64,000 nucleotides of DNA from Botryllus schlosseri (lineage: Eukaryota), in NCBI GenBank assembly GCA_051294905.1, contig CM119373.1, positions 374,001 through 438,000 on the forward strand, written 5' to 3'. The stretch's first letter is position 1. Each line of letters begins with the position of its first letter. Shown piece after piece: positions 3,701 to 32,900 of this stretch. The notes below the pieces were generated by a model. The model had not been told where the DNA came from. It searched no databases and was given only the letters and a program-made list of their open reading frames with translations. The translations under genes were made by a program, and so were the position numbers.

Positions 3701-4913
3701 CACGCACCAACAAAGCCAGTTTCTGTGCCTAAACGGGAACATATAAGCAACAAATTATTTCAATCCACTCTGTGGCGCGATCTGTGAGGTACGGCGACAT
3801 AGACTGTTATAAAAGTCGCCATACGGCCCTAAGGTGTTGCTACGGCTCCTCCACACGCTCGCCTATAGGAAGATAGTGGACACCGTTTCATTGTTACATC
3901 ACAGGACTATCTAGGGCTGACGTACACCGGTTTACGATGTAGTGTAGACCATGGTGGTACATTTTTTCTAATTAGTTATATATTCAGTCAATGCGAAGGT
4001 TGGGCTTGATTTTTATGAAAAGGGTTAGCCGCATGTAATATTGAATGTCCAAAACACCGCACTGCTTTAAATTCAGAAGGAACGTTTCTGAAAATCCACA
4101 TAACGACGATATGCTGATAGGAATATGAGCTTCAATAGAAAAGAACAAGGTTCAATAGTATACTTTTCTATAAGAAATTAGAATTTATTTCTTTTGTTAT
4201 CGTGGTGTAGCCTAAACATGGAGATGACAATTTTTTCACGGTTTGCATTGTAGCGGCTCGTAGCGGCTCTAGGGGCGCAAGTCCCACATGTTGGGAACCC
4301 CTGTTCTATGCAATGTTACGGCGTGCGACATTGCTTGAAGTTGCTGCAATGAGGAGATTTCGGTAATGTTTTCTCACGAATTATCACTAGCCATAAATAT
4401 AGTGTAGCTACTCATACGTTGCAGATAATATAGCCGCAAAGACATGATGGGATCCTCCACTGATACATGGGAATATATCTTACCCACTGACACCACAAAA
4501 AGACTCGTTTCTGACTGCTTTTTTTATTGCTACAGACGTATAACGGTTTTCTGAAAGAGAATCTGAGAATCTATACCAAACCAATCAGTAGCACAGCAAT
4601 TAAAATTACATACCAGACGGTGTTTCCGTAAGGGCAGATATACAATAAGACTGAAATATTTATAATTATTATTAGATTGGAAGCTATAAAGGTTGCAATA
4701 TGAATTACTATCCCAAATATAAGATTCTGGCAGAACCACGCAAGGCGAACGAAAATAAAACATCAAACCGGCAGGTCACAGAGGTATACAGAGTTTACTG
4801 AACCGCAAAGCTATGAAGTGCGATATCGCGATTTCACAGGTTGATATCGATATTAAAGATACGTCCCGAAATATTGGGTTTGGAAGTTTCTTTATTCAAC
4901 CTTCCGATCTTGT

Positions 4914-7755: not shown

Positions 7756-7955
7756 GGCATATCTTTATCGATTGCTAATGATGAAAGTTATCCATGACTT
7801 CAGTGCCAATTCATGTAAAATGTATTTTCCTCAACTTAAAAAATGTGATCCGTGATTCTCTCGCTAAAATACAACTACCTGAATTCAATTCGGAAGCAAA
7901 TCCTTCATTTTTTATTTTATCAGAATCGAACAGAAATATAATGGCAACCAACTGC

Positions 7956-8491
7956 TAGGGTTGCATTTAAACCAAAAATCAATTCAAACCAAACAAGTTT
8001 AAAACATAGCCCATGTTTAGAACACGTTTTCTTGTGATTTTGTTGTTTATGTTTTAGTCATGACGTGAAGTATTATCAACTGTGACGTCACAGCGAATTG
8101 ATATTCTTACAGGGCTCCGCAATAATTACGATTGGAAATATAGCCACGAGATTACTGCTTTGACCAAAAAGGGCTTCTGTCCCATGTTTGATTAAACGGA
8201 CCAAAAATACCTTTCACTAAGACTACATCGTCATGTATAGCATCCTTACGGTCGGCGGTCATTAACATCATAGCATCCATTCGGTTTGAGTTATATAGAA
8301 GTACGTGCTATAACTGTTGAACCGACAATGATTCGAAGGTTCCAACATCGTATACGTCGACTATGACATAATTATTCAACGTTTTAAAATTAAATTATGT
8401 TTTTTTCTAAATGACATCAGTTTACAACACTGCTTAAAACATGTTTTGATCAAAGTGTTTTGAAGCACACCTTGTTTCAAATGCAACCCGA
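7956..8491. mobile_element. MITE (TAGGGTTGCATTT terminal inverted repeat family), relative of 36746-37122
   Basis: Ends are tagggttgcatttaaa...tttcaaatgcaacccg and the interior resembles the 36746 copy. No clean TSD. Confidence 0.65.
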
Positions 8492-8693
8492 GCTAGTAGT
8501 GATGAGTCTGAGCTATAGTATGGCTGCAAGAACATCATGCAGCAGAACACCGGTATCACGATTCACGCCAAACGACGACACCTGTCTCTATTTGTTCGGC
8601 AACAAGTTTTTATATCTAATGTGCAAGTAGAACTAAAACTTATCACTTTTTAAAAATACGCAACTATAGAACTACCTAAGAAACAGTAATTAG

Positions 8694-10749
8694 CAGGGTT
8701 GTAACCAAGTCACATGGTTCCGAGTCACGAGTCAATCATACTTTTGTGGTTTTGACTCGAGTAGAGTCGAGTCATTTTCAATTCATCACAGACTCGAGTC
8801 CGAGTCCAAGTCACCGTTTAAAGGGTCAAGTCCGAGTCATGGTGTTATGATTCGAGTCGATTCCAAGTCACAGTATTGAAGTCATGTTCAACTCATGTTT
8901 TCAATCCTGCTTGGGTGATATCGAATTCCCTGTTTGCGAAACATGCTCATTTTGTCCCTATCAGAGTCTTGGCACGTGTTTATTTAGGCAGATAACGGAC
9001 AGGTCCTGGCCTCATTTACCGATGCTAAAGATAACTTTACTAATCTTAGAACTTAAAATCAAATATCTCTCTTGTCAGTCTGATACATCACCAATACAAG
9101 CATTCAGTTTTTATTATGAACACATCGACGATAGCTCACGAATAGCTGATAGAGAACCAACGAATTCACGTCTACATACTATCTGATAGAGAACCAACAA
9201 ATCCACGTCAAGATACTAGTTGATAGAGAATCAATAGATGCATGTTTATGTAGAGGTATTTACAACAGGCCAGCATGCTGTAAAAGCGTGCATGCAACTA
9301 TGTGCATTGTGCAGTGACAACAGAACAGATACCTTTTGATTATACTGAAGGTTTTCCCAATTGCATTACCGACTACATCGCAGTTACTGCATTGGAGAAA
9401 TATTTGTACAATGGGGCTGTTCAAAAACAATTTTTCAAATTTTCCGGCTACTTCTTAAAATTGCTAGATTGCCTAAATATCAAATTTGGCTCAATTCCAA
9501 CCAGTAGAAAGCAATGCTATGAAAGAAAATTTTAGACTAATTACAAATGAAGATTTTCGAATTTTACCGGCTATCTCATGATATTGTTACATTGTGTAAA
9601 AATATGATTCATAGCAAATTTGACTCAATTCCAACTAGAAAAAGTGAAGTTATTAGAGTAGAATGTTTTGGATATGAAAAAATAGTCGGCTTACTACTAT
9701 GTAATTATATTATATGAAAGAATTTCTCACTAAAATACTCCATTTATTTTCAAATCCAAAATATTCTCCTCTCAGATCATTGATCCACTTTTTTCAAATT
9801 AAGCCAGATTCAGTGTTCCTTTTATGCAACATAACAATTTTATCATGTAACCACCCAGTAATATAAAAAAGAAGTTATTTTAGAACAGCCATATTGTACA
9901 AACATCACACAACATTAGCCATTCATTATTACTCACGTGCACAATGCACATACCTAACAAAACGTCAAATGGACGAGGGGCATTGTGTGTTTTCACAGAC
10001 AGCAGATCAAATCAATGAGTTACACCTCAAAAATACTAATGTGGAAAGGAGATCCTCAAATATGTTAAAGCGGCATGGCCGTAGAATGAATCCACATCTA
10101 CTGAGTACACGTTCCACTAGTGCACTAGATGCAGGAATTGACAAGCATTTTTGAACCACACTGAAGAGCATTGAATACTCATTCTTTCTAGTCGCCCAAA
10201 AATGCAAAGAATCATCGCCTTCAAATCTACATATGAGCTTATCAGTCTCTTCACCATCTGAGTCATTTCATTGGCTCTAATTGAACTTTGATTCAATTGT
10301 TTGCTTGTATAATTGAAAAGTCTTGAGTACTTTAACTGCGGAGGATCTATTACCTCTTCATCACTGGACGATTTTGTACAATGCATTGCTACTATGTATC
10401 ATTTTCTGTTGTTTTTACGGCGGCATATCTGATATCAGACAAGTGCAACGAAAGCAGCGGTGACAAATAGCGATGTCGGCAGAATTCGTCGGATGCGTTG
10501 ATCTAGCCATTATGATTCGCAAATTTCTTCATCTTCAAGTCATATAAAATAAGCCGAGTCAATGACTTGGGTCGAGTCATGTGTAATGACTCGAGTACAA
10601 GTCGAGTCAATCCAAATATTGACTCGAGTCGAGTCGAGTCATTTTCCCATTTCAAGAAAATGACTCGAGTCAAGTCGAGTCATAAAAAAATCGTGACTCG
10701 AGTCTGACTCGAGTCGAGTCATGACTCGAGTCATTGACCGCCAACTTTG
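8694..10749 (-). mobile_element. Internally deleted hAT transposon with GACTCGAGTC subterminal repeats
   Basis: The left end cagggttgtaaccaagtcac matches the element at 47989. Both ends carry dense gactcgagtc arrays and the interior holds a transposase remnant. No convincing TSD. Confidence 0.75.
10007..10386 (-). pseudogene. hAT transposase C-terminal dimerisation domain remnant
   Basis: FWATRKNEYSMLFSVVQKCLSIPASSALVERVLSRCGFILRPCRFNIFEDLLSTLVFLRCN matches the hATC pattern (W..L..P.SSA..ER.FS..G). It is frameshifted relative to ORF 10117-10386. Confidence 0.85.
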
Positions 10750-10754
10750 GTAGT

Positions 10755-11340
10755 ATGTAAAAGCCTGTCTACATACTCCAACCTTTATGTTTCGTCTGTA
10801 ATCCCATACTGAGTAGAGGACAACGAATTAGAAATGCCGCGTAATAAAAATTTAACTCAAACTCAATTTGTAGTCGCGAGGACGTCGTACTCCTCAACAA
10901 TGGCCAGAATTCTCAATAGTAATATGCAGGTGGTTTTATGCCACTGCAATTTCCATCTCCTCTCTCATAAGTTTTTAAGCCCTCACTATAATTATCTTCA
11001 AGGGAAGATCTATATCATTTCAGATCAACGACTCAGTCGAAGACTACCATTATTCATCTCAATAACATTGTCGATGGTTATTGTCAAATGTTTTGATAGT
11101 AAGCATGAAATATAGTTCGCTACCCATTGTTGGATACAGCCATTGTTAAATGTTGGATGCTCGTGATAATGTGCAATTGTATGCGTTTCGTGACGGAATT
11201 CTGAACTTGTTCCGTTCAAACTGCGGCTGAGATCCTTTCTTATACTTGATTATATGAGGTCAATTCACACGCATAGCTTTTTTAATACATCGCCATCTCA
11301 TCCGTGTAAGCGGTGTCTTAAAAAGCCTAGAAGTGGGCAG
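10755..11340. repeat. Segmental paralog of ~35135-35880, the region just downstream of the NLR gene
   Basis: Colinear diverged blocks: ctacata..tttatgtttcgtctgta.tc.cata.t.ag.agaggaca.cgaatt, and tttgatagtaa.catgaaatat..ttcgct.cccattgtt. Confidence 0.7.
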
Positions 11341-12899
11341 TGCTACAAGACGGCAGCTACGGAATCAAATAATAAGAAATATATGCCCGGTGTTTATATA
11401 TATATCGACTTTCAATTAAATAAAAGGGCAAACGAAAACAGGAAACAAAAGAACATCAAGATAATCCGTTTTGCGCCCTTGTTAAGCGCCTCCAGCGTGG
11501 GCGGTCGTGGGCGTCTTCGAGCGAAAGCCCGCGTTGCGCTATAGCTCGGTCTCTTGTCGAGCGCCATGTGGTTCTATTCCAGCCCCCTATGTGCCTGGTG
11601 TAAATGACTATTGTAACAAACAAACACGCATAGCAGAGTAATACAGCATATATCATCGTACAGCGAGCGACTTATCGTACTACCAAGAGCGAATCAGATA
11701 TAAACTAATTACACCCGAGTATGAAAAAAACATTAGTTGAATAGTATATTAATAATAAAATGAACCCGAATATTTTCGGCTGACACTCGTCAGGGGTAAT
11801 TGCCAACAACTAGTAGACGATTGGAAAGAGCATTGTATCAACAATCGCATCATAACATATGACGTCACCGGCATGATATTTTGAACATTCGGGGCGAAGA
11901 GAGCACTTAATCTCAATATACTAATATTAAATGGGTTGGTTGGCGTATTTTGATTAAAGACGACTCCACGAGACACAAATAAAAATGTGAACGTCGCGTC
12001 GTCGGGAAGTAACAAGACTCCCTGTCAAAAGTCGATATTGCTTTTATAATTTTGACTCGATTCGAGTCGATTCATTTTTTATCAACCACTGAGTCAAATC
12101 AGACTTCAAGTCAGAGAGCAAAGGGTTGAGTGAGAGACCTAGTCAGAAAGTAATTTTTAGTCGCAACCCACAAATCGTGGTACAGATGGTTTGAAATATT
12201 CGGCTGCTTCATACCTTTCGGCGCTGAGAAAAGTATTCGTTTCGCTGGTTCGTGGAAATACAATACATATTGGTAGTTGCTACGTGTGTAATTCCTGAAC
12301 TAGACAATCTTACTGTGGCAATTTGCACTGTTGTGGTGACCATGCTTGGCTCCATCTACGCATATGGGCAGAAAAATGTGGCGCACACTACGAATCACAT
12401 GAATTAGTTAACAATGTTATTGGCCGTGGCGCAAAAGGCCGTCAGGCGATATGCGCCATTATTTATATTTAATAAAAAACAACAACAACATGAATTAGTT
12501 CTACCAACAGTCACAAATTTTCAATTTTGACGTGACAGTTGATTGATATGCATGACTCTTTGGGAGTTTAAATTGAAAATTTCGGGCCAATATGACTCTT
12601 TTGCCGTGAAAGGTTCCCGACCCTGCTCTGCTATATAGCTAAAATCTGCTATACACAGCGCAGTACAGATCGCATGTATAACCATTTTTGAGATATCCAC
12701 CATCGCCGTGATGGTTCAAAGGCCGCAAATAGTATTCTTGTTGAAGGAAATCTCAGCATTGATCTACAACTAACGCAGAATGACAATTTTAGGAAGCTAA
12801 GTAAATCTAAAAATTTTCATAAACCAATTATTCACATACCTAGTGTCGACATCTGTGTGGAGACGAATTGGGCCGGGATCTTCGAGAAATTTTCGTTAA

Positions 12900-14926: not shown

Positions 14927-17166
14927 CCAGGTGCAAATAATGAACGTATGAACCATTAAGTAGTAGGCCTATAGATGATACGAACCCTATCCATTCGATG
15001 GTGTTATGGCGGATGAAACACGAGTCACCTGACAATTCGTATCTTCAATATATTCGTATGCAAGCAAAGACAGTTCGGAATATGGAATTGTTGTTTGTTA
15101 GTAGTCGTTAGCGACAAAACTACTTCATATTGTGACGCAATATACGCATGTGTAGTATGCTAGGTAATTATGGCTCATGTAATTGAAAATATACACGATA
15201 TCATCTATGGGTTGGGTTACAGAATACATATAAAAACAATACAATTATATATGATCGGGTTAGGGTTACGGTTTGGGTATAGTATATAGTAAAGTATAAC
15301 GAAATATTGCTATAAATCTACGTGTTAGGGTTAAGATTTGGTATAGTATATATAAGCTGAAGAAATAAAAATATTTTTTTCTAGGGTTGTAGGAATTAGG
15401 ATGAGGTATAGGAAATCGAAAAGGTGGTTTGTCAGATAAGATGTTATATAATATCCAGTGGTCTGGTTGATTAGCCAATCTAAGAACTACACAGACGGAG
15501 TTACGATCGAATACCGTGATCCGGAGTCGTTCATAGTTGTAAGCTGCCGAAGGCAGCATAGCGGTAAAAGCTTGAAACACTGCGCCCGCAGGGGCGCAGT
15601 CTAGGGCTTCCGCGAATGGATCCACCAGATTCCTTGTCGGGGTTTAAAGAGAATGTATTATATATGTTGCTCAACAATTTGGTTAACAAGACATTCTGGT
15701 GTTTTACGATAGGATCTTCCTCGGTAAGATGTCATAGGCGGGCTTGACCCTACCAACAAGAATTCAAAGATTGGACGTTTTGGGTGGATATCATGTAACA
15801 TAAAATCTGGGAATATTTAAGATTAGGAGTCCTTATGGTAAGATACAGTATAAATAAAGGTAAAGCCACAATAAGGAAATAAAATAGATATCATAATTTA
15901 TAGTATAAGCAGAGGGAAGTAATGTAGCAGCATGAATATGACTCAGTCCAAAGCAACTCTACCATGGCACCTCACGTCGTCAGGGGTGGTAAAGGCGTAG
16001 GTAGGGCGTATTAGCCTCTCCTTTTCTGTAGCAAATACCGGTAATGCTTACGACCCGAAGGAGCAGTTGCAAATCTTTTTTAAGTTTTGGAGTCATGTTC
16101 CTAATGCTACATTACGAAGATGAGAATGAAATCATAAGATAGTATAGGAGTAAAGAGCGTAAATTAAAGTAGGTAATTGAACAGGAATAGGTGCAAATAA
16201 TGAACGTATGAACCATTAAGTAGTAGGCCTATAGATGATACGAACCCTATCCATTCGATGGTGTTATGGCGGATGAAACACGAGTCACCTGACAATTCGT
16301 ATCTTCAATATATTCGTATGCAAGCAAAGACAGTTCGGAATATGGAATTGTTGTTTGTTAGTAGTCGTTAGCGACAAAACTACTTCATATTGTGACGCAA
16401 TATACGCATGTGTAGTATGCTAGGTAATTATGGCTCATGTAATTGAAAATATACACGATATCATCTATGGGTTGGGTTACAGTATAGAGACTGTAGGATG
16501 GAGCGACGACCCATTGTTCTAAGTTTAGATCCGTCACGCTTGACTTTGCGGAGTAAAATTCCATTCGCGAGAGTCCGATTGTCCTATTTTACATGTAAAA
16601 GTATAGGCTATTTCGGAAATACAGGGACGAATTTGACCGCCGAGAAAGGGTGGAAATATTCTAGCTAGACGTTTCAAATTTTGCATGTTACGAGGAAGCA
16701 TCAATATGTTCTCACTATAAAAATTTCACAACTGGCCTCCACCCAGAACACGTTTAAAATCAATTTCCCGCAATGCCTTATTCAGCGATAACTCTCCGCG
16801 GCCGAATCCCGTAAACTCGTAGACAATGCTATGATTGATAAAAGGCTTTATGCGGTAACTGAGTGGCCGCTGATACCAATACAAAACTGCCCAAACTATT
16901 TTCTGTGCATAAGCAACCGATGAAAAAAACGAATAGACTACACGGAAAGCGGATGAAAGAGAGCGACGAAAAGATTATCACTACATCCAAAAGATCAATA
17001 TCGTACACTGTTTCATCGGGCATCAGGCCTATGTTACATTGGAAGACTGTACTTGTTCGTTTTGACATCTTCTTTTCTGTTCACTAGGCTACATCGCATT
17101 GTCTTATATCCCGTTGTACATTTCGCGTCTTTAGTAGTTAAAAATAATAGATCCTCCGCGGCAATT

Positions 17167-17604: not shown

Positions 17605-18276
17605 CTATCTCTCACTCAGATCAAGAAACCAATGCACCAAACGATTCCAATTGATATATTTATTCATATAGAAAGAAAGGAAGATACCTTTTCCAAGAAA
17701 AGAGTTGCCAAAGACAGTGAGGCACAAAAATATTCCAGATTTGGTACAATATACCAATATACCCCCCGATTCCCTGCTATTGATACCAGACATTCTTGCA
17801 GTGAAAACTTTTTCCTCAGCTTGGTGAACAAGTGCATCAACAATCTTCACGAGCAAAGATGCAGCAAGAAGCTGATGCTGCAGTCCAAGAAGGTTGCTTG
17901 CCTGCTGGCAAATGTTGGAGTAGTATTGATAAATGCCATCAGTACCAACGTCACAGAACACAGCATTCAAGCGTTTGACAAGTGGAACAATAAGATTTAA
18001 ATCCAATTCCTCAAATCGTGGTCCACACCTGGAAATAGAATGACAATTACGGCAAGCAATCTTCAAAATGTCCACTATTCGATCGATGTCAATTTGCTCA
18101 GTTGGTGACGGGAGCTTATGCACTTTCCCGTGCTTCTTGAGTTCCCTTACGGTGGGAAATATGGCTTCACAGACGTCACAACTTATTCCACTCCACTCAT
18201 CCAATCCTTCAAAGCATTGGGAAATTTCCTCCTCGGTGATGGATTCCCAATCCTCCCACAATGATTCTTCGGCCAT
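17605..18276 (-). CDS. C2H2 zinc-finger protein carried by the P-like element; probably 3'-truncated
   Basis: 223-aa ORF with an acidic N-terminus and CDVCEAIFPTVRELKKHGKVH. It is convergent with the THAP remnant. Confidence 0.55.
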   Translation of the reverse strand: MAEESLWEDWESITEEEISQCFEGLDEWSGISCDVCEAIFPTVRELKKHGKVHKLPSPTEQIDIDRIVDILKIACRNCHSISRCGPRFEELDLNLIVPLVKRLNAVFCDVGTDGIYQYYSNICQQASNLLGLQHQLLAASLLVKIVDALVHQAEEKVFTARMSGINSRESGGILVYCTKSGIFLCLTVFGNSFLGKGIFLSFYMNKYINWNRLVHWFLDLSER

Positions 18277-21200
18277 AACTTTTACGAAAAAGTATCGGTT
18301 ATGAAGGAATCAGAATTTCTGTGAAAGCATAATACTCAGAATTTTATTTCCGTTTTGCTAATCAAATAACAATTACCATACCGGAACAGTACATGAAGAT
18401 AGCTCGCTAATTCTATAGTATCACATCAATGTCCTCCAATAGTACGGTAAGTGACTTATATTTTCTCGTCGGCAGGTTGAAATACATACAGATTCTGCTG
18501 AATGACGCCTTCCAGAAGGACCATGGTATGGCATACCCACTTCGCCTGCAACGAAATGCCGTTTCATTTTCATCGCCTGCCCTATTATTGTTATCTTCTA
18601 TAATCATATAATACGCCACTATAATAGCTATTATATCATAAATCATCGCTGGTATTCACCGACCGTGCGCATTGTGCAGCGATTATATACCGGTATATTC
18701 ATCGCTTCGTACGGCAACAAACGCAAGACTGTCACGCAAGTATCCAAGATATTCACTAATCAGGCCAAACATATTAAGACGTCCAATTAGTCACCGAGTC
18801 CGTTATAAGTATTCAACCTCCAATACACCGACTCATTCCCATCGATAAGCATGCATTAAACCAACCAAACACTCAACTTTCCACCGTGTGAATTCCATGT
18901 GGGATTATTAATGGTACACGTAACAATGGGTAGCTCCCTCCGCAAAGCGGAGCGTGACCTATCTAAAGGGAGTTGAAAATATTATTGCGCGCAGTGTAAA
19001 TAGAGTAGTTCAACTTATATAGATATTTCGGTATATCAATGCACTAATACCGGTATAATATCTCATATTTATAGTATTATGGGCAAAAATACCATAAATA
19101 TCCATTTTTACAAGATAATTGCTGAAAAACCACGCAAACAAAATATGTTGCGGATGAATATTAATTAGGCATTTAAATCAGTCGTCACTCCATCATACAA
19201 TCTCTATAGTTACAGAATACATATAAAAACAATACAATTATATATGATCGGGTTAGGGTTACGGTTTGGGTATAGTATATAGTAAAGTATAACGAAATAT
19301 TGCTATAAATCTACGTGTTAGGGTTAAGATTTGGTATAGTATATATAAGCTGAAGAAATAAAAATATTTTTTTCTAGGGTTGTAGGAATTAGGATGAGGT
19401 ATAGGAAATCGAAAAGGTGGTTTGTCAGATAAGATGTTATATAATATCCAGTGGTCTGGTTGATTAGCCAATCTAAGAACTACACAGACGGAGTTACGAT
19501 CGAATACCGTGATCCGGAGTCGTTCATAGTTGTAAGCTGCCGAAGGCAGCATAGCGGTAAAAGCTTGAAACACTGCGCCCGCAGGGGCGCAGTCTAGGGC
19601 TTCCGCAGTCTAGGGCTAGGGCTTCCGCAGTCTAGGGCTTCCACTGCTTGTACGTCGCTACAATTTTGCCTTAAAAGTAATCTAGTAGAACAGGAAGTAG
19701 TGTACAAACCCAGTCACTTGCGTAACTACTCCAACTAGGTAAAATCTACTTGAGTGACCTTAAAAATTACTACGTTACCGACATATTACCATCTCTGGAT
19801 ACAATCGATATGATAATATAGTCAGAGTTCGAGTTATTGTAATTAAAGGATGTACCAGTGCATGGAACGTGGGAGAGACCAGTCAATCTCTTCACAAGAG
19901 AGTAAATGGTCATCGACATGATATTGCGAAAGCCAACAAATCGAAACCGTCGGTAAACATATTCTTCGGCTGGACACTCCTAGAACGACATACTAATTAA
20001 CGTATTGATCGGTAACATTGAAGATTCTACCAAGAGATATTGACAAATTGGGTACATTCCAACAAGGGCTGAATAGAGGGTGCATGTTTCACTACACAAT
20101 GTTCACTTGACTCTTTTCTGCAAGTGTGTTACACTATAAACACCTTATCGTATCCAATTTTTAGGAGTACAAGTTACCATAGTGATCCAAACATCAACTG
20201 GATCTTAATGTCGATGACGTCATAAAGTACGCGATTTTGGAATCTGAAAGTTATCACCCACTATGATGTCATATTATACCTATGTCCAAATACAAAATCT
20301 TTTTTGCTTTGCTTTTTCTGCGTTACTTTCGCTTTAACACCCGATGCAGGAGCAGAGCTGCGAAAGCTCGTGTAACTATAATAAAGTTATATTCATACAA
20401 GTGGACGTAGAAGATGCTAAGGTATATATATATCATCGTCTACTATCGGCCCAATAAAGTAGGTAATCAAAGGGTGATTCAAATTCCGAATAGCACAAAG
20501 ATGATTAATTCTGAAAGGCTACATCCCTAATATAGTATAATTATATAGAAGACGAGTTACTGGCTCTGATGCTGATGCAAACCTAAAACCGTAGTAACAC
20601 CCATATAGCTTGGTTACTATTTTATCCGTGGTACTTCCTGAGTATCCTTCGGTGATAAATGTTATTGCTCTATTTGGAGCTGCGCCTATACGATATTCAA
20701 CTGTTGGTCGTTTCTGATATTGCTAAAAGTTGAACAAGCAGCTTCAAGGACATTTGTCGGAGTCTCTATGAAAAATTACATGCCGTCTATTATCATGCGG
20801 AAATTTGGAATCGCTGTAAACCTCAATACCAGGGGTTCTCAGCCCTTTCTTGGTCGTGGCCCATTTTCCGGTTTGAAAATGTACTGTGGCCCACCTCTTA
20901 TCCGAGATTCTTAATCTTGCTCAATGCGTGGTAGTCGACGGCGATGATATGCCTATTTGTCTAAAATATGCGCATTTTTCTCTTAATTTACTGATTATAT
21001 TTCAATCTACACCTCTAGGGACATGAAAATTTTCTAGTTGAATAAATATCCTCAACAAACGACCAACGAAATAATCTTGGGCCGGCGCCTACGATATTTA
21101 CGGCATTATCTGGTACATTACACTTGCAAGAGCTAACAGGCCGATGCTCACAAAACAGAAATTCGCTATTACTCTTGACGTAATAATGGGCGAAAGTTTT

Positions 21201-22536
21201 GATAGGACGATTACTCTCAACGTGACAATCGGCGATTGTCTCGATTTCGCTTCTCATACCGGACTCTTCGCATTTTGAAGCGAGTTTTCGAGTTGAAGGT
21301 TGACAGCTATGCTTTAAGCTGCCGTTTTGACCGTCTTGTACTATTAGGCAGGCTACAGTAATGCGATTGAAATACTCTGTAGCAGACCCCTCAAGTTTGA
21401 GTTGAAGTTTTCGAGCTCGTCGCCGCGTTTGAAATGTTACAGGATGATGCCGTGATTAGCTAAATGCTCCAGGGACGATATTCCGTATATAGTGTAGTGG
21501 AAAACGTTTAGCTGTCGTTTTGACCGGATTACAGCGTGGCGTAGGATACCGCTATGCCAGTGGTTCTCAACCTTTTTGTCCTCGCGGCACACTTTGAAAA
21601 CGAAAAATCAGTAGGGGTCTCAGCTTTCCCGTGGCCACTTACTGGCCACAGATTTTTCTGTGGCCGGCCACGAAATTTTCGTGGCCGGTCATGGAAAGGC
21701 GGTATTTCGTGGCCGGCCACAGCGAATTTCATGGCCGGCCATAATGATTCATCGTGGCCGGCCACAGGTTCGTGGCCAGTTAATGATTTTTGAATATCAT
21801 ATTGAGGTTCTGTACATCCAAGAAGCCCTTTAATGATCTTTGCTCGTCTAGATTGATTGAAACTGTCATCTTTCCATCACTGTGACTATCTGAAGCAGAT
21901 CATCTCTATTTGCACTGCGTCGGTTTGGTTTGTGAAGTATAATTACACGAATATCGTCAGTTATCAAATTATATCACTAAACCTACTACTTCATGTCGTC
22001 GGGAAGGGTCTAAAATTTCATCGGCTCGGCACATATTTACGCTTTTCCTGCATGCGTTGTAGAAATGTATTTTATCCTCTCTGACTATCACAAATTTACG
22101 GTGGGGAACGATGTAAACTCTACTAGTGCTACCACCCGAACAGAAGTTCCTTAAACCGTCCTGTCTACTTGTCCACTTGTCTTGAAATCATAATCCTCTA
22201 CATCAGAAAGTGTGTTCCTATACCAGTTTTATATAAAGGAGAGTATATAAAATCATAATTGCGAACTGCCAGCCACGCCGTCCCATCGCTAAAACGGCGT
22301 TTAGATGAACTCTTTCGGATTATCACCGCACTGACGTATTGTACACAAGGAATCCATTAATATTATACAAACGAATTGATTTTATTAGTCTGATACACAG
22401 ATTAACGAATCAAGAAAACCAGTAGAATTTATTTCGAGGCGTTACCCGAAGCGTCTCCTCTGCAATACGTCCTTTTCTGTGGTAAAAGAAACTATGAATA
22501 AGCAAAATTTCAAACCTAATAATACACAAATTTACC

Positions 22537-23070
22537 AGTAAAATCTAAAAGCATGTTCCCGAATGCCTGACGATATTGACGGCAACACTCAGTGCTCGCA
22601 GAAAAGTCGAATTCCTCGTCACCATTCAGAAAGTGCTCGGCAAACTGAAACAGCAATTGCGATTACACATGAAGAGTCTTTTGAAATTTTGAGTTACCTT
22701 CAATAACAAGACTCCGCAGTTATAAGAGTCATTCTGTTGACTATGAGTCCTGGATACGATTTCCCACCCAGTGGCAGAACTATTTGTATGGTACTTCCAG
22801 AATCCCCTGGGAGCATAGAGATATGCAGTGTCAACAACATGTAATATCTCAGTTACTCACTTCCAATTACGTTCCAAGCGGCTTCGGTAGTGTTCCTCAT
22901 TGCCCACGGGGTCGTATAAGTAGAGTGTTTTTGAATTTAGGTTAGTCGCCTGCCACAAATACATTTGATTTAATTATTAACACACCAATAAGCCGTAAGG
23001 CCCCTAGTCGCTTCCTTGTAGGGCATTAATCATATTTCCTTTCTCCTTGGTGTGAAGGATGAATCTATAA
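22537..23070 (-). pseudogene. Spliced Ulp1/SENP (peptidase C48) protease remnant
   Basis: Successive short exons read EI*LMPYKEATRGLTAYWC / ATNLNSKTLYLYDPVGNEEHYRSRLERNW / GFWKYH...THSQQNDSYNCGVLLLK / FAEHFLNG. These match the C48 HW, YD and QxNxxxCG motifs. There is a stop, and the His codon reads tat. More degraded exons probably extend to ~24260. Confidence 0.8.
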
Positions 23071-23161
23071 ACCGACCTATCCATCTTTGTATCCAATTCA
23101 TCAGTTACTTGAAGTCGAGGTAGATGCAAGTATCGTTCTAGTATTGTTATCATAAATAAGT

Positions 23162-23501
23162 TAGGCTTACCATATTTTGGAAATCAAAAAAGAGGACACT
23201 TTTTCAGAAATTTGCAACTTGCAAAACCGGAGTGAAATTCTCAAGAATCGGTGAATTTTTCCCACTTTGCGATCGGTTGACTAAAAAAAAAAGGTCAACT
23301 TGTCGCTCAGAGCTTAAATCACCGTTTTTCACCTTCACTTCTGTGCTAATATGTGGCATATCACTCGCAATTTCCTCTAAATCTGCTCTAAATCCTAAAA
23401 AAGAGGACAAAATCTCAAAAAAGAGGACAAAAGGGCGTCCTCCGAGGACACTTTCAAAAAAGAGGACAAATCCTCTTAAAAGAGGACGTATGGTAAGCCT
23501 A
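23162..23501. mobile_element. hAT Blackjack-like MITE
   Basis: TIR taggcttaccata...tatggtaagccta. TSD aaataagt on both sides. Internal aaaagaggaca repeats. Confidence 0.88.
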
Positions 23502-26029
23502 AAATAAGTCCAACCAGTAAAATCCAATGATTGACGACATGCAACGCTGTGATGAACGAGTATGTCAACGATTGATGAATCTGGAAATATTCTGTATCGA
23601 TTAATACGGAGAAGAAAAATTGTTTCTATCAAAATTGTTGATTACGTACCAATTTCTTGTGACGGGTTCCACGGTATCTACCATCACACCACCACAACGT
23701 GGAGTACTGGCAATCCAAGTACATCTCACTGCTACCTGTCTGAAATGAGTATATCTAGATAAACTTTCGGCATTTACTTTTACCCCTTTCATTCGTACAC
23801 GACTCTTATGACATGAAAGGACAGCACATAAATAGAAGAATTCAAAGAGGGAAATATTCAAATTACCCTGCTTATCCATCAACATTATGTCCAATAATAA
23901 TTTGGATTTCAATATTCACCTTAGAATTTGGAAATAGAATGAAACTCAATGGTATCGGACAAAAAGGTCGAAAGCAAATTTCTGGAAACAACAGAAGATG
24001 TGCTTGAACCCTGCCAATATTACCCAGTGCTACGTACCTGCATCACAATCATTGTCCTTTTTTACATATACAGCAAATCTGCAATGAATTAAGTCCAGGT
24101 GTCGGTACAGTAATGTACTACTCATGAATTCGTCAACGCAATTCACAGGGCACTTTAGATTACCCCCCGCATCTTCCAACAATTTTAACGCCAGGTCCCT
24201 CGAGGTTGATGGTGGCGAACATGGTATATACAGCAGGATGTCGATGATCAAATATAGACCTGTATATAACCTCATGTCGCAGACTTATCGTAGACCTGGT
24301 ACAGAAAAGAAGGATTGTATCAGCCCGGCATTACGCAATACACAGCTATTCAGCAATACGAACGATAACAAACTATGTAGTTGTTTGCAACTACATGTTC
24401 CATACCGTTGGAAAAGAGATATCAGGTCGGGGGAAGCACCGGCCACAGCGAGCCGCGAGCTGTTCTGTGGCCGGCCACAGAATGTGATGTAGATTTCACA
24501 GCGTTTCTGGAACTTAAAAGAGTATCTTCCACATATTCTTTGTTCTTTGATTCCCTAATTGTTTCGTCCGGGTACTGTGATTACGGTATTTAGTACTGAA
24601 AACGAGAAACAGGTTAAATGCCCGCATATTGACCGTTCGTTCACGTATCTCGATGAAACATATAGATTATTATGTATTCAAGGTGGTATATAGTCGAATC
24701 TACTTGAGCGTAAATCAAACAAATCTGCAGTGAAGTAAGACAATTTTCCAGTGCAGTATTGTATTATTCATAAATTCACCAGGGCAATTCACGAAAGATT
24801 TTAAACTGCTCCTACATCCTTAAACTACATATGATCCAATATATACGTATAACTTCTCATCGCAGACTTATCATAAACGATAAACATGGTTGAAAAATGA
24901 AGGACATTAATCACATTATCAATATCATATTGTTTAATCGTTCATTTTCATATTTACAAAATATAACCAACCATACATACGATTGCAACTGCACAATGCA
25001 GTAGAAAAATCAATATCAGATCGGGGGAAGCACCGGCCACAGCGAGCTCCGAGCTGTTCTGTGGCCGGCCACACAATGTCATGTGAATTTCGCAGCTTTT
25101 GTTGAACTTATACAGATTTTCTGACATATATTTGGTGCACATTGTTTTTTCCAATTCTATACAGTTGCTTACGATTAGCTCTGACGAGTCTCAGCCGAAT
25201 ATTTGGGGCTATTTCTACAAAAAAGCATCCAAATCAACACTTACCAGTTACCAGTTTTGATATGTCTTCATTGCTTCTAGCTTTCTATGCCATTATTTCC
25301 TGTTTCATTTGGCGGATATCTCCCTTTTTAATGCATTCTTTACATCATTTTGTGTGCTTCCAGTTGATATATAGAGACTATGCCAGATCGTTTCGACTTC
25401 TTCCTATCGTTTCATTGTATCGGTATTCATCTGGTATTTCGGGTGAAAATGCTTATAAACGGAGCTAAGCTCTCGCCTTCGCCTAGTTCTATTTACTGTA
25501 CGCCCATAACAGAACATAATTGATCATACATTAGACCACGATTGGGTCACGTACAGTACTTATCATCAATACTAACTTGATATATTGCAGCCGGCCATGA
25601 AATTTGGCTATGGCCGGCCATGAAATTTGGCTATGGCCGGTCATGAAATTTGGCTATGGCCGGCCATGAAATTCAGTCATGGCCGGCCATGAGAATGAGT
25701 TTGACATGGCCGGCCATGGAAATTTCATGGCCGGCCATACCGAAATTTCGTGGCCGGCCATAGAATAGCACTTTTCATGGCCGGCCACGGAATATCTGTG
25801 GCCGGCCACGAAATTATCCGTGGCCAGTAAGTGGCCACGGGAATGCTGAAAGTCCGTCTCCGAAAAATACTTCGCGGCACACTAGCACAGTGGTTCTGAA
25901 TTCTTTTGGCTTACGGCACAGGCAAACTACCAGAATGCGTATAGCAGCAACCATAGTCTTACAGAGGCGGGCAGTGGGCACTGACGAAGTACTACTACCT
26001 TTTCGGAGCACTCAAGTAAGCTTATCTCT

Positions 26030-26220: not shown

Positions 26221-27879
26221 TCTCGTTTAAACTTCAGGTCGAGCTTAATTTCATGAGATTGGCTTGACAATAAAGTCTGCCCACTAACGCATTGTCGATG
26301 TAATTAACCGTCGCATTGAAGAGTCGAGTCGCGATCGCCACTAACCGATACAGAGGCGTAGAAATGTATTATGCCAAACGCATTTCCACGCAGATCGTGT
26401 AATGGCACCTGTGATGATAGTATACCTCAATAGTGTTGCTGGCAGCCAACCGCAGTTGTATTGCAGTTCCAACAAACCGGAATAATAAACCTCTGCGATG
26501 AGAAATTTGTAACTGATATAATTTTATTAACTTTATTCTCAATTCTGGAATTTGTCGCCTGCAACATAACTTTGCGCGCTGAGCCTACATTTCACCTCCA
26601 GTGCTGGCACGCTACCTAACAATCGCAATGTGAATGGCTATGTTGGTAATTCTAATTTGTAAACGTGAACATCACTTCCAAATGAGTTCATTTCTCGATT
26701 GTGAGAATGCCTTTCCCAGGTGTTGGAGGTTTATGTAGGCTGCTACTCGTCCTCCGATCCGTAAAAGCAGTGTCTTACAAAAATTGGGGGGCCGTGCTAT
26801 AGGTTGGCATCTCAGGAATCAAAATAAGTAATATCGATATGGTTTAAAATTATCATCGATTACAAAGACATGGCAAGAATACGACTACAAATATAAACAT
26901 AAAAAGGTCATCAACCTGCGTCATGTCCCTGTTCTGCATCCGGTTCTGATGGGGGTGACAAGTATAAGGTGAACACCTTCAGCCACACCTCAATATCACG
27001 GTACAATTGCCCGAGTTTAGTTATCACCTTTCTAAATGCTACTATGCGTGGGCAAACTAGCGTATCGCCCCCATTGACGGTGGAGGCCCCAGTTTGATTC
27101 ATGGCAGTGCAGTAGCAAGTCACGAAGAATCGCGGATTTATTAGATTCTCCGTCCTATACGTTGCTGTGCTCAAAGCGTCTTTACAATATGAAGCCCAGA
27201 GAAAGACCCAATCCATGACCTAATGGGGATGTCAGATTGAGATACGGTCGCCGCGACATCCTTATATCTGTTACTGCATCGTATTGTGCATCGCGTGTCT
27301 TGATCGGGTAAATTCAATAGAAAAACCAACAATGACACACTCAAAATTTGGATTTTTCTGATACTTCGACATAGTTTACAACATTTGCTCGCGGCACACC
27401 TGAGCAGTCCAATTGGCACACTAGCGTGCCGCGGCACACCGGTTGAGAACCACTGCGCTATGCAGTGGTTTGATAATTCTTTATGGTGCGTATTATGTAT
27501 GTGGTGAAGAATTGGTGGCGAGCTTCATGTGACGTTTCTTCCAGTTAATTTTGACTGATTGTATATACTTGGTGACTCAGGTTTAGCTTAAAGGACATCT
27601 TCATCGGTTAAATCGACTTTCCATTATTCGGTAGATATATTTCCACTGATTTTGAAAATACATATGGTTTTGGCAGAAAATGAGTATTTTTCAAGATATC
27701 GGGCGTAAAACAGCAACCCCCCGCTGAAACGACACAAAATCAGTCGAGCGTGGGATGACGTCAGATTGTGTGCAGTTTTATTTCTGTTGCTCACTCACCG
27801 TGGTACATATTTGGCGATCTGTTGTCTTGTTCCTTATTTCTGGTAAAGTGATTAGCGACTTTGCCGTGTATCGAGGAAT

Positions 27880-29951
27880 ATGGACAGAGTAGATAGCAGC
27901 CTATCGAAGAGGAGACGAAAAAACGGTAAACGATGCGTGGCTTACGGGTGCTCAAATGACTCTTATACAGAACCTAAGGTTTCGTTGCATGCGTTCGCCA
28001 GGAAAGAGTCTGAACCTATAAGACACAAGGCATGGGTTGATGCGGTTAGGAGAACGAGGAAAGATTGGTTGGAAACGCCAGTAAAACCATCCTCCTTCTT
28101 AAGTTGTGTTTTGTGCTGCAACCATTTTGAACCGGAATGCTTTGTGCCTATAAACGATCTTCACAGGCAGGCAGGTTTTCGATGCAGTAAAGTGCAGCTA
28201 AAAAAGGATGCTATTCCAAGGAAACTGATCCGTGTGATATGGATATCATCGAATCATCTATGGGCGAGAGTACTTCTGCTGGTGATGCCTATTCCAATCA
28301 CCGAATATTATTAGATAAAGTGACTCAGACAAATAAAGTTAAGCTGAGTTCATATGGGAGCAAGGGTGTGAATGCTATAATGGAGATGAAAGATTTTTCA
28401 TGTCAGGCTGGTAGTAGCTATATTCATTACCCCAATGTGGGGGATTATAGCAATGAAAGTGAATACAATTTGAGTGATGCTGAGAGTGACGAGGAATCAG
28501 AAATGAGCGATGTAACTGAAGAAATTGAATGCACCACCAGTGGATTTGTGATGGTTAAAAAACAGAAGATCATTGATCTTTTTTCAAGCTGCCCTTTGTG
28601 CCAAATGGAAGCCGACATTAAAGTTGCATGCCATGGCACCTTGATGAAAATTGATCAAAAGTGTCCTGACAAGTCATGCAACTATCACCGTACGTGGGAA
28701 AGTCAGTACTTGAGGGAAGGCAAGAGTGAAGGAAACATTGTGATGAGCAGTGCTATCATGTTAAGTGGATCATCTCCTTCGAAAGCACTGAAAATGTTTC
28801 GTTTGATGGGTTTACAGTCGATTTCCCACTCTACGTATATGCACTACCAAAAAGCATATTTGATTCCAGCTGTGAATCATGTATATACCACTGCAAATGA
28901 GTGCGATTTGACAATGGTTGCTGGAAAGTCACTGATACTATCTGGTGATGGGAGGGCTGACAGTCCAGGACATAGCGGAAAGTATATGATATACACTCTA
29001 ATGGATACCGCCTCAAGAAAAGTTCTGAGCTCCGAGTTGGTTCGGTCAAATGAAACGGGAGGTAGTGCGTATATGGAGAAAGAAGGTTTGAGACGATGTT
29101 TGAGTGCATTATCCAGTGTTACAGTTGAAGAGCTTGTCACAGACCGACATCCTCAAATTAGGAAATATTTGCGGTTAGATCATCCGAACACAAGACATAC
29201 ATTTGATACGTGGCATATTGCCAAAGGGTTGAAAAAGAAGCTCTCATCTTTGTCTAAAAAAAAAGGATTGTGAGCTTATTGGACGTTGGCAAAAGTCATT
29301 GGGCAGCCAGGTTTACTTCTGTGCGAGACGTGGGAATGGCAACCCAGAGCTTAATCAGCAAATTTGGAGTGCAGTTGGTCAGCACATAATTAATGTACAT
29401 GAACACCCAAACAATGATTCTGTCCTAGTTTGTGAGCATGGTGAATTGTCAAGACCTCGACATTGGTTCAATCCGGATTCATTCGCTTACGACAAAGTTA
29501 TGGAAGTGCTATATTCAAAATCAATGTGCAAAGACATACGACAGCTTTCAAATTCCAGCAATACTTCGGGCAACGCTCCTTCAACGCACTCCTCAATCAC
29601 TTCTGTCCGAAATTATACCATTACCACTAATCACGCCAGAAAGCAAGAATGCAGCTAGCGGTACTTCATTTTAATGAAAACGTGTCGAGGAAGCATCGGC
29701 TAACTACTGCTGGAACACCTCTTTATGCTGTGAAATATCACAAATACAAGAAGGGCTGCTCAGTTCAGAAAGTTCTTGAGGATGCTACATATGACTACTG
29801 TGAGAAACTGATTGCCGAAGTCGAGCGTCGTATCACGTTCGGATTGCCTTTGGAGAAGACAGAAATACCACCACCTCTTGCATCACTGTCAGAAAAAACA
29901 GAGAGAAGTGATGCAATCAGATCTCACAGAAGCAGATACCATCACACTTGA
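27880..29951 (+). pseudogene. Kolobok THAP-DDE transposase, frameshifted
   Basis: THAP (CVAYGC..LHAF..W..CCNHF..DAIP), then CxxC/CxxxxC, GDGRADSPGHSGKY, LVTDRHPQIRK, DTWHIAKG, SFNALLNHFCPK and LAVLHFNEN. Frameshifts near 28230, 29260 (poly-A) and 29575, plus an in-frame stop. Confidence 0.88.
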
Positions 29952-30782: not shown

Positions 30783-31531
30783 TCATGAATGATTAAAAAC
30801 GAATCCTTTATAGCTGTCAGAGGTTAATTCTTTTCTGATTCTTGTCACCACGCACGAAGGCAAAACTTTCCTGTTGTCTCTGCCACACCATCCCCATATC
30901 CATCGCACAAAATTACGGTAGGATGTATGCCTCAATTTCCTGCAATTGAGAATTGATATACATAGTTGCTGAGCTGAATATGTACCTACACGTACTCGTG
31001 TAGTGTGTATCTGCTTGTCGACTGCCTTCCATATTGCTGCCTATACCCATAATATGCTGTTTCAAGAACCCATCTATCCAAACAGACCGAAGAAAATCCA
31101 GGGTGCTCCGTGATGCACTTAATGCTAGGATAGTCCAAACGGTCGCGTACGTAGCAGAGCTCCTTACAGCACACTGGTTCTCTGCCTGTTGGCATAACAT
31201 GGCACAGCGAGCACTGGCACCTTATAGATAAAATATAGTATTGAACACATGCTGGACAAGTGACGAGAGGGATCGCTATAATCACCATTCGGTGTTGCCT
31301 TGTCTTGTGCTATTGCTGTCAGGTACTGGGGTTGGATTGATGGTGCTGACCTCTCCATCCGAAACCATGGGTTCTAACTCGGTAGGATCAAGAACGTCTA
31401 AAATCACAAGTAGATTAATTAAAAGGCGTTGGCTATATATTTCTTTGATATCACATATAATTGATACCTTCGTCCGAAAATTCCTCCGAATAACTTCCGC
31501 TTCTAGATGTATCACTGGTATCTCTTTCCAT
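30783..31531 (-). CDS. KolX-like Cys-rich accessory protein (P2X7 ballast-domain homolog), 4 exons, 185 aa
   Basis: Exons 31531-31468, 31397-31286, 31220-30996 and 30939-30783 give a 558-nt open frame. Motifs: WCQCSLCHVMPTGREPVCCKE, CITEHPGFSSVCLD, RHTSYRNFVRWIWG..RKVLPSCVVTRIR. Confidence 0.85.
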
Positions 31532-31786: not shown

Positions 31787-32900
31787 ATGGTCGATAAATG
31801 CTGGGCTTATGATTGTATGGCTGGATATTTGACAACTAAACAAAAAGTTTCAATTTCCATTTGAGGATTTGGAGGTACAAAAAATGGATATCTTTCGTGA
31901 ATGGACGTGATTGGAAGCCAAAGAAGAATTCTGTAATTTGTGCGATGCACTTCGAAGAAGCAAAGTACATCAACGACTGTGGCTTTCGAAAAAAACTGCT
32001 CTTGGATAGAAAACCAGTTCCTACCATCCGATCGGAGCCTGAGCTGCAACGGCCTTCATTGATCCCGACTATGACCCCTTGCAGGAAACCACCGAAGAGA
32101 AGGATATTTCAGAATGATCAGTTGAAAGATTTTGAGCTGTCTGATAAGATGAGCAGTTTATAAGATTTGACCGAGTCCCACACTCCAGAAAGCTATATAC
32201 CATGTACAGAAGAGGGTAATCAATATGTAATTTTCTACCGTATGGAATTCAATGATGACTAGGTGTGGCGTGGCGCATTATTCAACTTCCCGAAATATCT
32301 CAAAAATGTATGAGACAAATCCGAGCACAATTTACTGGAAGAACTTTTCGAGCCAAGAAATTTGTCTTCCTCCATTTTCATTCGCCGTTGATTCTTCAGG
32401 TGTATCATCACCCGGCGGATTTATTGCATGGAACGATCTTCACAAAATCAGGGAATCTCATGATAATGATTCGAATTTGCGGAAAGCACCAAAAGTGATA
32501 TATGCCTCGTTACATCCAAGCAATAACAAGCAGAATGTCAACTTAGCTCTTGCTCCATTCTATGAGTCGACTATTGCAGCTTGCAAAAGTTACTTGCCTC
32601 TCACGGAAGATATGGCTTCATTCTTGAACCTGATTAATGCTTGGTTGACGATTCTCACGGTATAGGCAAATGTGTGCGGGGGGGGGGGGAGGTTTCTGGT
32701 TGGTTCAACAGAAGTTACCAATTCTGAAAAGATAATACTGCTCTGTTCCATCCTAAAAATTGACATCAAGCTCAAGTCATTTTTACCATTTCAAAAAAGT
32801 CATTGAAGAAGTGGCTATTCAAATTACCGAATCATTTCTATCTCATTACAGTGAGACGGTGTCGTGCGTAGTTGCTGGGTAAATTGTAAGCAAGGTCATG
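31787..32900 (+). pseudogene. P-element/THAP9-like transposase remnant
   Basis: MVDKCWAYDC...KWISFVNGRDWKPKKNSVICAMHF...PVPTI (THAP) and WNDLHKI...LRKAPKVIYASLHPSNNKQNVNLAL (P-transposase GTP-binding region). Stops, frameshifts and deletions are present. Confidence 0.8.

Follow-up and report, generated by a model that had tools for sequence, protein, structure and literature searches.

Ulp1 proteases as cargo of transposons have been published for Ginger1, animal and plant Mutator-like elements (MULEs), CACTA, Crypton and NeSL/Utopia, in line with what an earlier, sequence-only reading of the locus described below had taken as established. Ginger1 has an intron-containing gene with a C-terminal Ulp1 domain, terminal inverted repeats (TIRs) of 44–270 bp and 4-bp duplications of the target site (TSDs), which are of CCGG/CCGT type, and Ulp1 is also present in Mutator elements of hydra and lancelet (PMC2836005). 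In Arabidopsis, Vandal MULEs carry an accessory Ulp1 gene (Kaonashi (KIU)/VANC) and family-specific motifs, for which an anti-silencing model has been put forward (PMC13317346). Roles of Ulp1 in transposons have been proposed (PMC2836005), and its function there continues to be described as unknown (PMC13317346). The TSD is 8 bp long in Zisupton and Dileera, and usually so in hAT elements (PMC12730594). Its range is 8–11 bp in MULEs according to the pertinent passages of PMC6446971, which describe Spectre with an 8-bp TSD, 74-bp TIRs and a C2H2 open reading frame, and Rehavkus with a 9-bp TSD and a minisatellite ahead of one TIR. The Zisupton gene is multi-exonic (PMC9297572).

The locus considered here occupies positions 21609–25860 of a 64,000-nt stretch of Botryllus schlosseri DNA (the window; contig CM119373.1, positions 374,001–438,000 of the forward strand). 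It is, in our judgement, probably a decaying, non-autonomous copy with internal deletions, from a cut-and-paste family with a multi-exon gene ending in a C2H2 finger and a C48 protease. With Zisupton/KDZ elements it shares TIRs, an 8-bp TSD (not exclusive to that group) and a multi-exon predicted gene, but no KDZ, CxC, SWIM or SAP domain was detected in it, it measures 4.3 kb and a C2H2 finger precedes its protease. Bohne et al. are said to have found, in 2012, a SUMO-protease domain in the platyfish Zisupton protein. The 8-bp TSD is also common to hAT elements, whose termini are typically YAG..CTR, whereas those of the element are CAG..CTC. The same TSD length recalls the MULEs (the 9 bp of Rehavkus would require one mutated base), as do the inverted ends and C2H2 finger in the case of Spectre and a subterminal minisatellite in that of Rehavkus; the element differs from them in having no match to the MULE DDE domain or to PHD, and the Spectre passages of PMC6446971 mention no protease, unlike what is found here. 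As in Ginger1, an intron-containing predicted gene with Ulp1 is combined with TIRs, but the 8-bp TSD and the lack of a detected integrase place the element outside that group. As in the KIU/VANC case, an Ulp1 gene accompanies the element's own repeated motifs, but the present element is from an animal, has TIRs and codes for a C2H2 finger, whereas Vandals are MULEs of plants that lack TIRs and have a VANC domain.

As to the superfamily, we would tentatively place Zisupton/KDZ first without calling it probable, followed by a MULE of the Spectre or Rehavkus kind, which is possible but rather doubtful, while hAT on the one hand, and P, Merlin or another superfamily on the other, are each unlikely to a similar extent, all these gradings being approximate. 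The suggestion that the family is undescribed is likely to be correct at the family level only, because no close protein was found; Ulp1 cargo is already in print, and so is the anti-silencing idea attached to it, which has been discussed for the Ulp1-carrying VANC/KIU genes (PMC13317346).

The element and its ends

With inverted ends, a TSD and other copies, as expected of a TIR transposon, positions 21609–25860 are a real transposable element nested inside another repeat. The host repeat, which we take to be hAT-MITE-like, starts at 21558–21600 (plus strand) with a CAGTGGTTCTC end, is found at high contig depth and resumes at 25869. The element is 4252 bp long, or 3904 bp after subtraction of a nested MITE and of the MITE's duplication. 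The 8-bp TSD of the sequence-only reading was confirmed as exact copies of CGAAAAAT at both flanks, 21601–21608 and 25861–25868 on the plus strand; any common 8-mer was found by chance in 0.9% of random pairs of 30-nt pieces of the window (20,000 draws). Furthermore, in public contigs of runs X1, X5 and X8 position 21601 is joined to 25862 with 4260 nt skipped (4252 + 8), a joint that a 9-bp TSD with one mutated base equally yields. As the joint may stem from uninterrupted paralogues of the host repeat, it fixes the boundaries without demonstrating an insertion polymorphism.

The inverted termini previously noticed are present as arms of 79 nt with 84% identity (21620–21698 and 25771–25849), each beginning 11 nt inward of the target duplication, but the outer 11 nt match at only 5 of 11 positions, within a left inverted end at 21609–21698 (plus strand) and a right one at 25771–25860 (minus strand). 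Two contigs from other loci align up to 25859–25860 at the right end and differ from the element at 39 and 30 sites over about 225 nt. Subterminal repeats built on TGGCCGGCCA are found on the left at 21661–21767 (22-bp period repeated 2.9 times; five copies at no more than one mismatch) and on the right in a minisatellite at 25590–25825 (23-bp period repeated 6.4 times; nine copies at the same stringency), and are likely candidates for transposase-binding sites. All 16 copies of TGGCCGGCCA in the window lie within the element, with none in the rest of it; two are internal, in blocks where 8 of 81 nt are mismatched, compared with 26 of 86 nt for the finger block.

The nested MITE (340 bp, 23162–23501) has TAGG..CCTA ends, its own 8-bp TSD, AAATAAGT, and a very high copy number, and a MITE-free joint skipping 348 nt is seen in X5 and X8 contigs. 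The insertion is present as had been described, but it sits within the predicted intron 23514–22950, which does not support its reading as an inactivating lesion.

The predicted gene and its protease domain

From splice signals, reading frame and homologues, a nine-exon gene is predicted on the minus strand, with 290 codons free of stops from 24284 to 22446 and eight introns, all GT..AG and seven of them of 52–69 bp. Exon A (24038–24284; provisional 5' boundary, in-frame ATG at 24275) is an open stretch containing a C2H2 finger with the pattern C-x3-C-x3-F-x5-L-x2-H-x4-H (codons 24152–24086), which gave an E value of 0.039, under the cut-off, with Pfam zf-C2H2_ZNF451_1st, and scores of 0.83–0.86 with C2H2-type Atlas clusters, to be read as a lead only. 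Exons B (23920–23981), C (23799–23867) and D (23650–23739) come from the model, B from GT..AG signals and frame, with no Pfam match for C and D; homologue support is absent for exons A–D. The homology to C48 proteins covers exons E–H, namely exon E (23515–23580), aligned with a Ciona protein (P0009) and carrying the catalytic His (codon 23529), aligned to that of SENP1; exon F (22861–22949) with the catalytic Asp (codon 22913) and exon G (22698–22806) with the oxyanion Gln (22736) and catalytic Cys (22718), both placed by homologue alignment; and exon H (22536–22644) with the C-terminal helices of C48 (18 of 42 residues identical to P0005; pairwise E 1e-8). Exon I (22446–22476), a short tail, is the last one placed, and a further exon is expected after it.

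The multi-exon C48 motifs were located as LYDP (codons 22919–22910) and QQND..YNCG (22739–22715), and the triad, the integrity of which had been set as a check, is intact in the spliced model in the order His-Asp-Cys, with the Gln six residues ahead of the Cys. The supposed change of His to Tyr is not found: His is present as NHWILL in the exon matching the Ciona homologue, and the sole Tyr-Trp site found near the Asp exon, AYWC at 22993, is intronic. Similarly, codon 24029 of a second HWVIL motif, thought to hint at another protease-like domain, falls in a 56-bp GT..AG intron (24037–23982), so that there is no second protease.

The closest relatives are 'uncharacterized' products of Ciona intestinalis LOC144745135 (XP_078487063.1, i.e. 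P0009) and LOC108950842. The spliced protease is identical to P0009 at 62 of 131 residues of the protease core (47%; E 2e-43 against six sequences) over four exons. The Ciona homologues have the same triad and the same splice points, homologue models breaking or reading through at four of them, namely on either side of the His exon, at WK and at LK; unlike the element gene, they are annotated at 98–153 aa and have no finger. P0009 (31.4 bits) and P0011 (24.0) exceed the gathering cut-off of Pfam Peptidase_C48 (PF02902; 20.7 bits), P0005 (20.4) and P0006 (17.1) stay below it, and none of ten proteins from the unspliced frames of the window matches, the C48 identity of the gene being suggested by the homologues that pass Pfam. 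All 30 Atlas matches are C48 (best 0.96). A profile of the window exons and the Ciona proteins matches SENP1 (6nnq) at E 1.2e-4 (0.001 for P0009 by itself), the H, D, Q and C residues lining up. That chance motifs have produced a spurious C48 assignment or a spurious exon model would agree with the lack of a Pfam C48 match in the window's own frames, with the uninformative AlphaFold model of P0009 (pLDDT 38) and with the lack of an RNA splice joint among the 15 of 313 joints listed, but it is barely credible in view of the triad alignment, of the splice points in common and of four exons that are 47% identical to a protein exceeding the C48 cut-off. The depth of RNA reads across the protease (0–1.65 per strand; one raw RNA run, 6% read) is neutral regarding expression.

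Few relatives of the protease were found, all uncharacterized; one of five homology matches, P0008, a bacterial Ig-repeat protein, was dropped as spurious. No longer homologue was detected among 5184 candidates of 428–2000 aa in a word search (a weak negative) or in a separate homology search with no length limit, and no long homologue of the finger exon among 25 candidates (also weak). By sequence comparison, the protease appears to be a divergent tunicate C48 lineage with its triad intact and a zinc finger in front. The copy adds this lineage to the known cases as one more example, in cut-down form; its weight would be greater only for a family shown both to lack a transposase and to be under selection, since the role of the protease would then stand isolated.

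Transposase and possible mechanism

The absence of a visible transposase was borne out by a Pfam scan of all six frames, in which X stood for stops (no family in any frame), and by scans of sub-regions; it is a weak negative, since C48 itself escaped the six-frame scan. Neither the KDZ transposase domain (PF18758) with CxC clusters nor a MULE DDE transposase was matched in the six frames and sub-regions, at low sensitivity for split and decayed exons, so that a complete KDZ domain, at the least, is missing here; no hAT transposase or dimerization domain and no Gypsy-like integrase was matched in the six-frame scan. A complete transposase would not fit into the element. An autonomous partner was looked for but not found, an end-motif scan of metagenome contigs gave no matches, none of five viral-contig candidates was a related locus, and two candidates from 114 stretches scanned were discarded, their motif matches being unrelated and their DNA not similar.

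In the reading that we prefer, the parent gene would encode a DDE transposase upstream of the finger and protease, as in the C-terminal Ulp1 add-on of Ginger1. The parent transposase would bind the TGGCCGGCCA arrays, cut with an 8-nt stagger and so mobilize the present copy in trans, and the parent protease may act on the transposase, on repair factors or on silencing proteins at the element by removing SUMO or some other ubiquitin-like tag. We infer both the transposase fusion and the superfamily, as no transposase remnant and no autonomous partner were found.

It is unlikely, in our estimate, that the family never fused its protease to a transposase, in which case a finger-deSUMOylase, as the sole gene of a satellite or helper element, would bind the TGGCCGGCCA arrays of the family and lift SUMO-dependent silencing, the transposase being borrowed. 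This would agree with the triad and with the 290-codon frame with its ATG at 24275, an openness that is not required of a long-dead copy, with a finger of DNA-binding type adjoining the protease, with the confinement of the 16 TGGCCGGCCA copies to the element within the window, the two internal ones being better conserved than their flanks, with Ciona homologues annotated as short stand-alone proteins and with the failure of the homologue searches to detect a long one. There is a plant precedent in the KIU-carrying Vandals, which recognize their own motifs and escape silencing (PMC13317346), and Drosophila piRNA-guided silencing is described, in the passages concerned, as requiring SUMO. However, the Ciona models look fragmentary because of intron read-through, and one C2H2 finger is rarely enough for specific binding to DNA. 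Further elaborated, the same idea would make of the element a transposase-free tunicate TIR family using finger and intact protease as an anti-silencing factor at its own arrays to counter piRNA silencing that depends on SUMO; it would parallel plant KIU/VANC independently, and Ciona would have retained related genes. We regard this as quite improbable.

Decay and other copies

The conclusion that the copy is dead is retained in part: the reasons given were mostly wrong, but there are stops in the 5' part and no transposase was found. A stop codon adjoining the Asp exon falls in a 54-bp intron, whereas true stops lie further 5'. From the acceptor at 24295 all three frames reach a stop ahead of the zinc finger, and the 5' region (24300–25590) contains 21–28 stops in each minus frame and results in part from a duplication. 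This internal tandem duplication consists of unit 2 (24074–24537), with the intact finger and a motif block at 24402–24516, and unit 1 (24720–25132), with a decayed finger and a motif block at 24996–25110, the two being about 75–77% identical. The 5' region looks like degraded and duplicated coding sequence, with stop codons where the exons would meet, which fits truncation and argues against an originally stand-alone deSUMOylase. Among the 40 of 809 variant rows listed, ten private changes are exonic, three synonymous and seven non-synonymous, a pattern close to neutral that also speaks against that alternative. The copy is unable to move on its own and is probably not under selection.

The protease is more than a one-copy capture, other protease-bearing versions being present among public contigs: at position 22881, in a protease exon, other letters are carried by eight contigs in X1, seven in X5 and four in X8. 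The contigs do not extend far enough to place these versions of the protease between the same ends, and some of the variants may be allelic or derive from pooled samples. Summed X1 depth is roughly 4,400–12,300 over 24292–25843 and 200–540 over the protease, a contrast that even shorter derivatives would produce by being more common. The greater abundance of the flanking part, the retained introns and the neutral look of the private changes among the rows listed would also suit a Pack-type capture, in which a non-autonomous TIR element took an intron-bearing part of an Ulp1-like gene from the host or another transposon and spread it passively and without function, as in the transduplication of Ulp1 known for MULEs and CACTA (PMC2528002, PMC13317346). 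We consider this improbable, given that the protease is distant from cellular SENPs (compare the E value of P0009 with SENP1), that its relatives are few and uncharacterized and that the decayed finger exon of unit 1 also lies in the abundant part, which indicates that the gene is old in the family.

A PHD-like Cys pattern at approximately 22345–22270 had no Pfam match, needs several changes and was not accepted. In the 5' region, a decayed frame is seen at 24952–25428.

Boundaries and ends of the element

The element occupies 21609-25860, where the sequence-only reading had placed it, with the exact 8-bp duplication CGAAAAAT on both sides (chance of any common 8-mer, 0.9% in 20,000 draws of random 30-nt window pairs) and ends reading CAG..CTC. 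The inverted termini described earlier hold for two 79-nt arms of 84% identity (21620-21698 and 25771-25849), both starting 11 nt inside the target duplication, but not for the outer 11 nt, where 5 positions match. A 21601-to-25862 joint, found in contigs of three public runs, skips 4260 nt (4252 + 8). Because the element is inserted approximately 50 bp into a high-copy repeat starting at 21558, this joint may stem from uninterrupted paralogues, and it fixes the element ends without demonstrating polymorphism. A target duplication of 9 bp with one mutated base would lead to the identical joint, but would require one additional change, and the 11/11 symmetry of the ends would be lost. With up to one mismatch, the motif TGGCCGGCCA is present in 16 copies in the element (5 left, 9 right, 2 internal), arranged as tandem arrays with a 21-23 bp period, and in none outside it on the same strand of the window.

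The protease gene and its state of preservation

Scanning all six frames against Pfam, with X in place of stops, returned no match and missed the protease too. Comparison of the two motif exons with 1.84 billion representatives gave five matches, four of them related; a bacterial Ig-repeat protein was dropped as unrelated. The named homologues are uncharacterised Ciona intestinalis proteins, indicating a tunicate-like host. In one of them, P0009 (XP_078487063.1), the real His motif, HW then IFL, is visible in a region aligning to a 66-bp exon (23580-23515) upstream of a nested MITE. The minus-strand model comprises nine exons (A to I) over eight GT..AG introns, seven of 52-69 bp and an eighth of 565 bp that contains the MITE, and 290 stop-free codons. 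Exons E-H rest on homology: the spliced model and P0009 are identical at 62/131 positions; the Peptidase_C48 cut-off (20.7 bits) is passed by P0009 (31.4) and the homologue P0011 (24.0), with two others, P0005 and P0006, slightly under it; all 30 clusters that P0009 matches in the Atlas belong to C48; a profile built from the window exons together with Ciona proteins finds human SENP1 (E 1.2e-4; P0009 alone, E 0.001), the four residues His, Asp, Gln and Cys lining up; and four splice points coincide with breaks or read-through in the homologue models. Exons A-D are modelled from splice signals and frame only, exon A (24038-24284) showing the classical C2H2 arrangement at codons 24152-24086, with a Pfam match (E 0.039) short of the cut-off.

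This copy had been considered dead from a stop codon, a His to Tyr change and the MITE insertion. The H-D-C triad is intact (His 23529, Asp 22913, Cys 22718, plus Gln 22736). The Tyr-Trp site at 22993 falls in the long intron, as does the MITE (23162-23501), a real, very high-copy one with TAGG..CCTA ends and its own 8-bp TSD, presumably hAT-like, with partial copies at 3403-3576, 57898-57944 and 63747-63793. The second HWVIL (24029), once taken as a hint of another protease-like domain, lies within a 56-bp intron (24037-23982). The stop adjoining the Asp exon likewise lies in an intron, of 54 bp, but damage does exist elsewhere, 5' of the finger: the strong acceptor at 24295 meets a stop in all three frames (24274, 24162, 24287), with resumption possible from an in-frame ATG at 24275, the next 1291 bp 5' contain 21-28 stops per minus frame, and the 5' part includes an approximately 600-bp tandem duplication with finger ligands lost in the outer unit. 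The element is real and its protease is better preserved than had been supposed, an artefact in the C48 call or the exon model being a very remote explanation.

The end motif also occurs in two internal blocks (24402-24516 and 24996-25110), one of which is a 20-bp palindrome. Between the duplicated units the blocks show 8/81 mismatches versus 26/86 for the finger exon, suggesting a putative cis-element. They can also be read as a common short Cys-containing peptide frame.

Transposase and proposed mechanism

The claim that no transposase is visible agrees with the six-frame scan, but the same scan missed the protease, so that a remnant may persist. A whole multi-exon transposase has no room, because the 5' 1291 bp are stop-ridden and in part duplicated and 666 bp remain on the 3' side of the gene. 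The element is probably a non-autonomous derivative of a family with the gene order transposase, finger, Ulp1. The parent gene would have run in that order, and the element would be mobilised in trans via its end arrays, with a cut staggered by 8 nt. In the vicinity of the transposition complex, or on silencing proteins, the parent protease would probably strip off SUMO or a similar modifier.

Other copies and variants

In the copy survey, 4/24 public runs were aligned at an 80% threshold, and every bin was covered in three contig sets. Contigs over the protease region show about 2-10% divergence from the window, alternative exon letters recur in several contigs per run (8, 7 and 4 at 22881), a MITE-free joint is present in two runs (X5, X8), and the right end (25859-25860) is reached by contigs of other loci. 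Therefore, the protease is not peculiar to the present copy, contrary to an incidental capture seen here only, although allelic variants and the pooling of samples may make other copies seem more numerous, and the contigs do not span far enough to join protease with ends. Passive capture of the protease is held to be improbable. Summed depth over 24292-25843 is about 10 times or more that over the protease, which is not a copy number, and suggests that shorter derivatives are commoner than protease-bearing ones. Among the 20 variants tested (21875-24136; among 40 of 809 listed), 10 are exonic changes, 3 synonymous and 7 not, and leave the triad residues unaffected; in this small, selected sample they are compatible with neutral drift of the present copy. 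A separate AT-rich contig (L001, 1-290), unrelated to the element, carries the C-terminal motif of a Ulp1-like protease.

Comparison with known Ulp1 carriers

Lacking the transposase by which superfamilies are defined, the element is assigned to none of them. A SUMO-protease domain is reportedly found in Zisupton. Zisupton and Dileera are described as making 8-bp TSDs (PMC12730594), and the Zisupton gene as multi-exonic (PMC9297572). For MULEs, TSDs of 8-11 bp are reported, with Spectre combining an 8-bp TSD, 74-bp TIRs and a C2H2 ORF, and Rehavkus a 9-bp TSD and a subterminal minisatellite (PMC6446971). Published Ulp1 carriers include Ginger1 and Mutator elements (hydra, lancelet, plants), for which a function in transposition or repair has been suggested (PMC2836005), grapevine CACTA (PMC2528002), Cryptons (PMC3212892) and NeSL/Utopia (PMC4640811). 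Ulp1 is already known as transposon cargo and the element is an additional member, working like the carriers described but differing by its missing transposase. SUMO is also described as having a part in piRNA silencing. KIU genes, which are VANC genes with Ulp1, are reported to enable Vandal elements to evade silencing; the paper gives the function of their Ulp1 domain as unknown (PMC13317346). A transposase-free anti-silencing helper is an unlikely alternative to the non-autonomous derivative, and an animal finger-deSUMOylase acting as such a helper is doubtful.

Neighbouring features

At 27856-29951 (plus strand) a THAP domain (E 7e-11) precedes long ORF pieces in which a DDE-like motif is seen, and a Cys-rich ORF lies on the opposite strand (30989-31309, minus). 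We take these together to be Kolobok-like; Pfam had no match for the DDE-like pieces or the Cys-rich ORF. A second THAP domain (E 6e-7) with broken ORFs downstream (31840-32665, plus) is presumably P-element/THAP9-like. The 403-codon ORF at 41235-42446 (minus) is a predicted NLR-type gene: it encodes a NACHT domain (E 4e-10), together with a weakly matching NOD2 winged helix. Between near-identical ORFs at 15266-15643 and 19259-19609 lies a 234-codon ORF with a C2H2-like motif (17605-18309, minus; no Pfam match at E 0.01), possibly another transposon. Close to the window end, two 129-codon ORFs (58161-58550 and 63141-63530), spaced 4980 bp, are identical, which indicates either a tandem repeat or a duplication that occurred recently.
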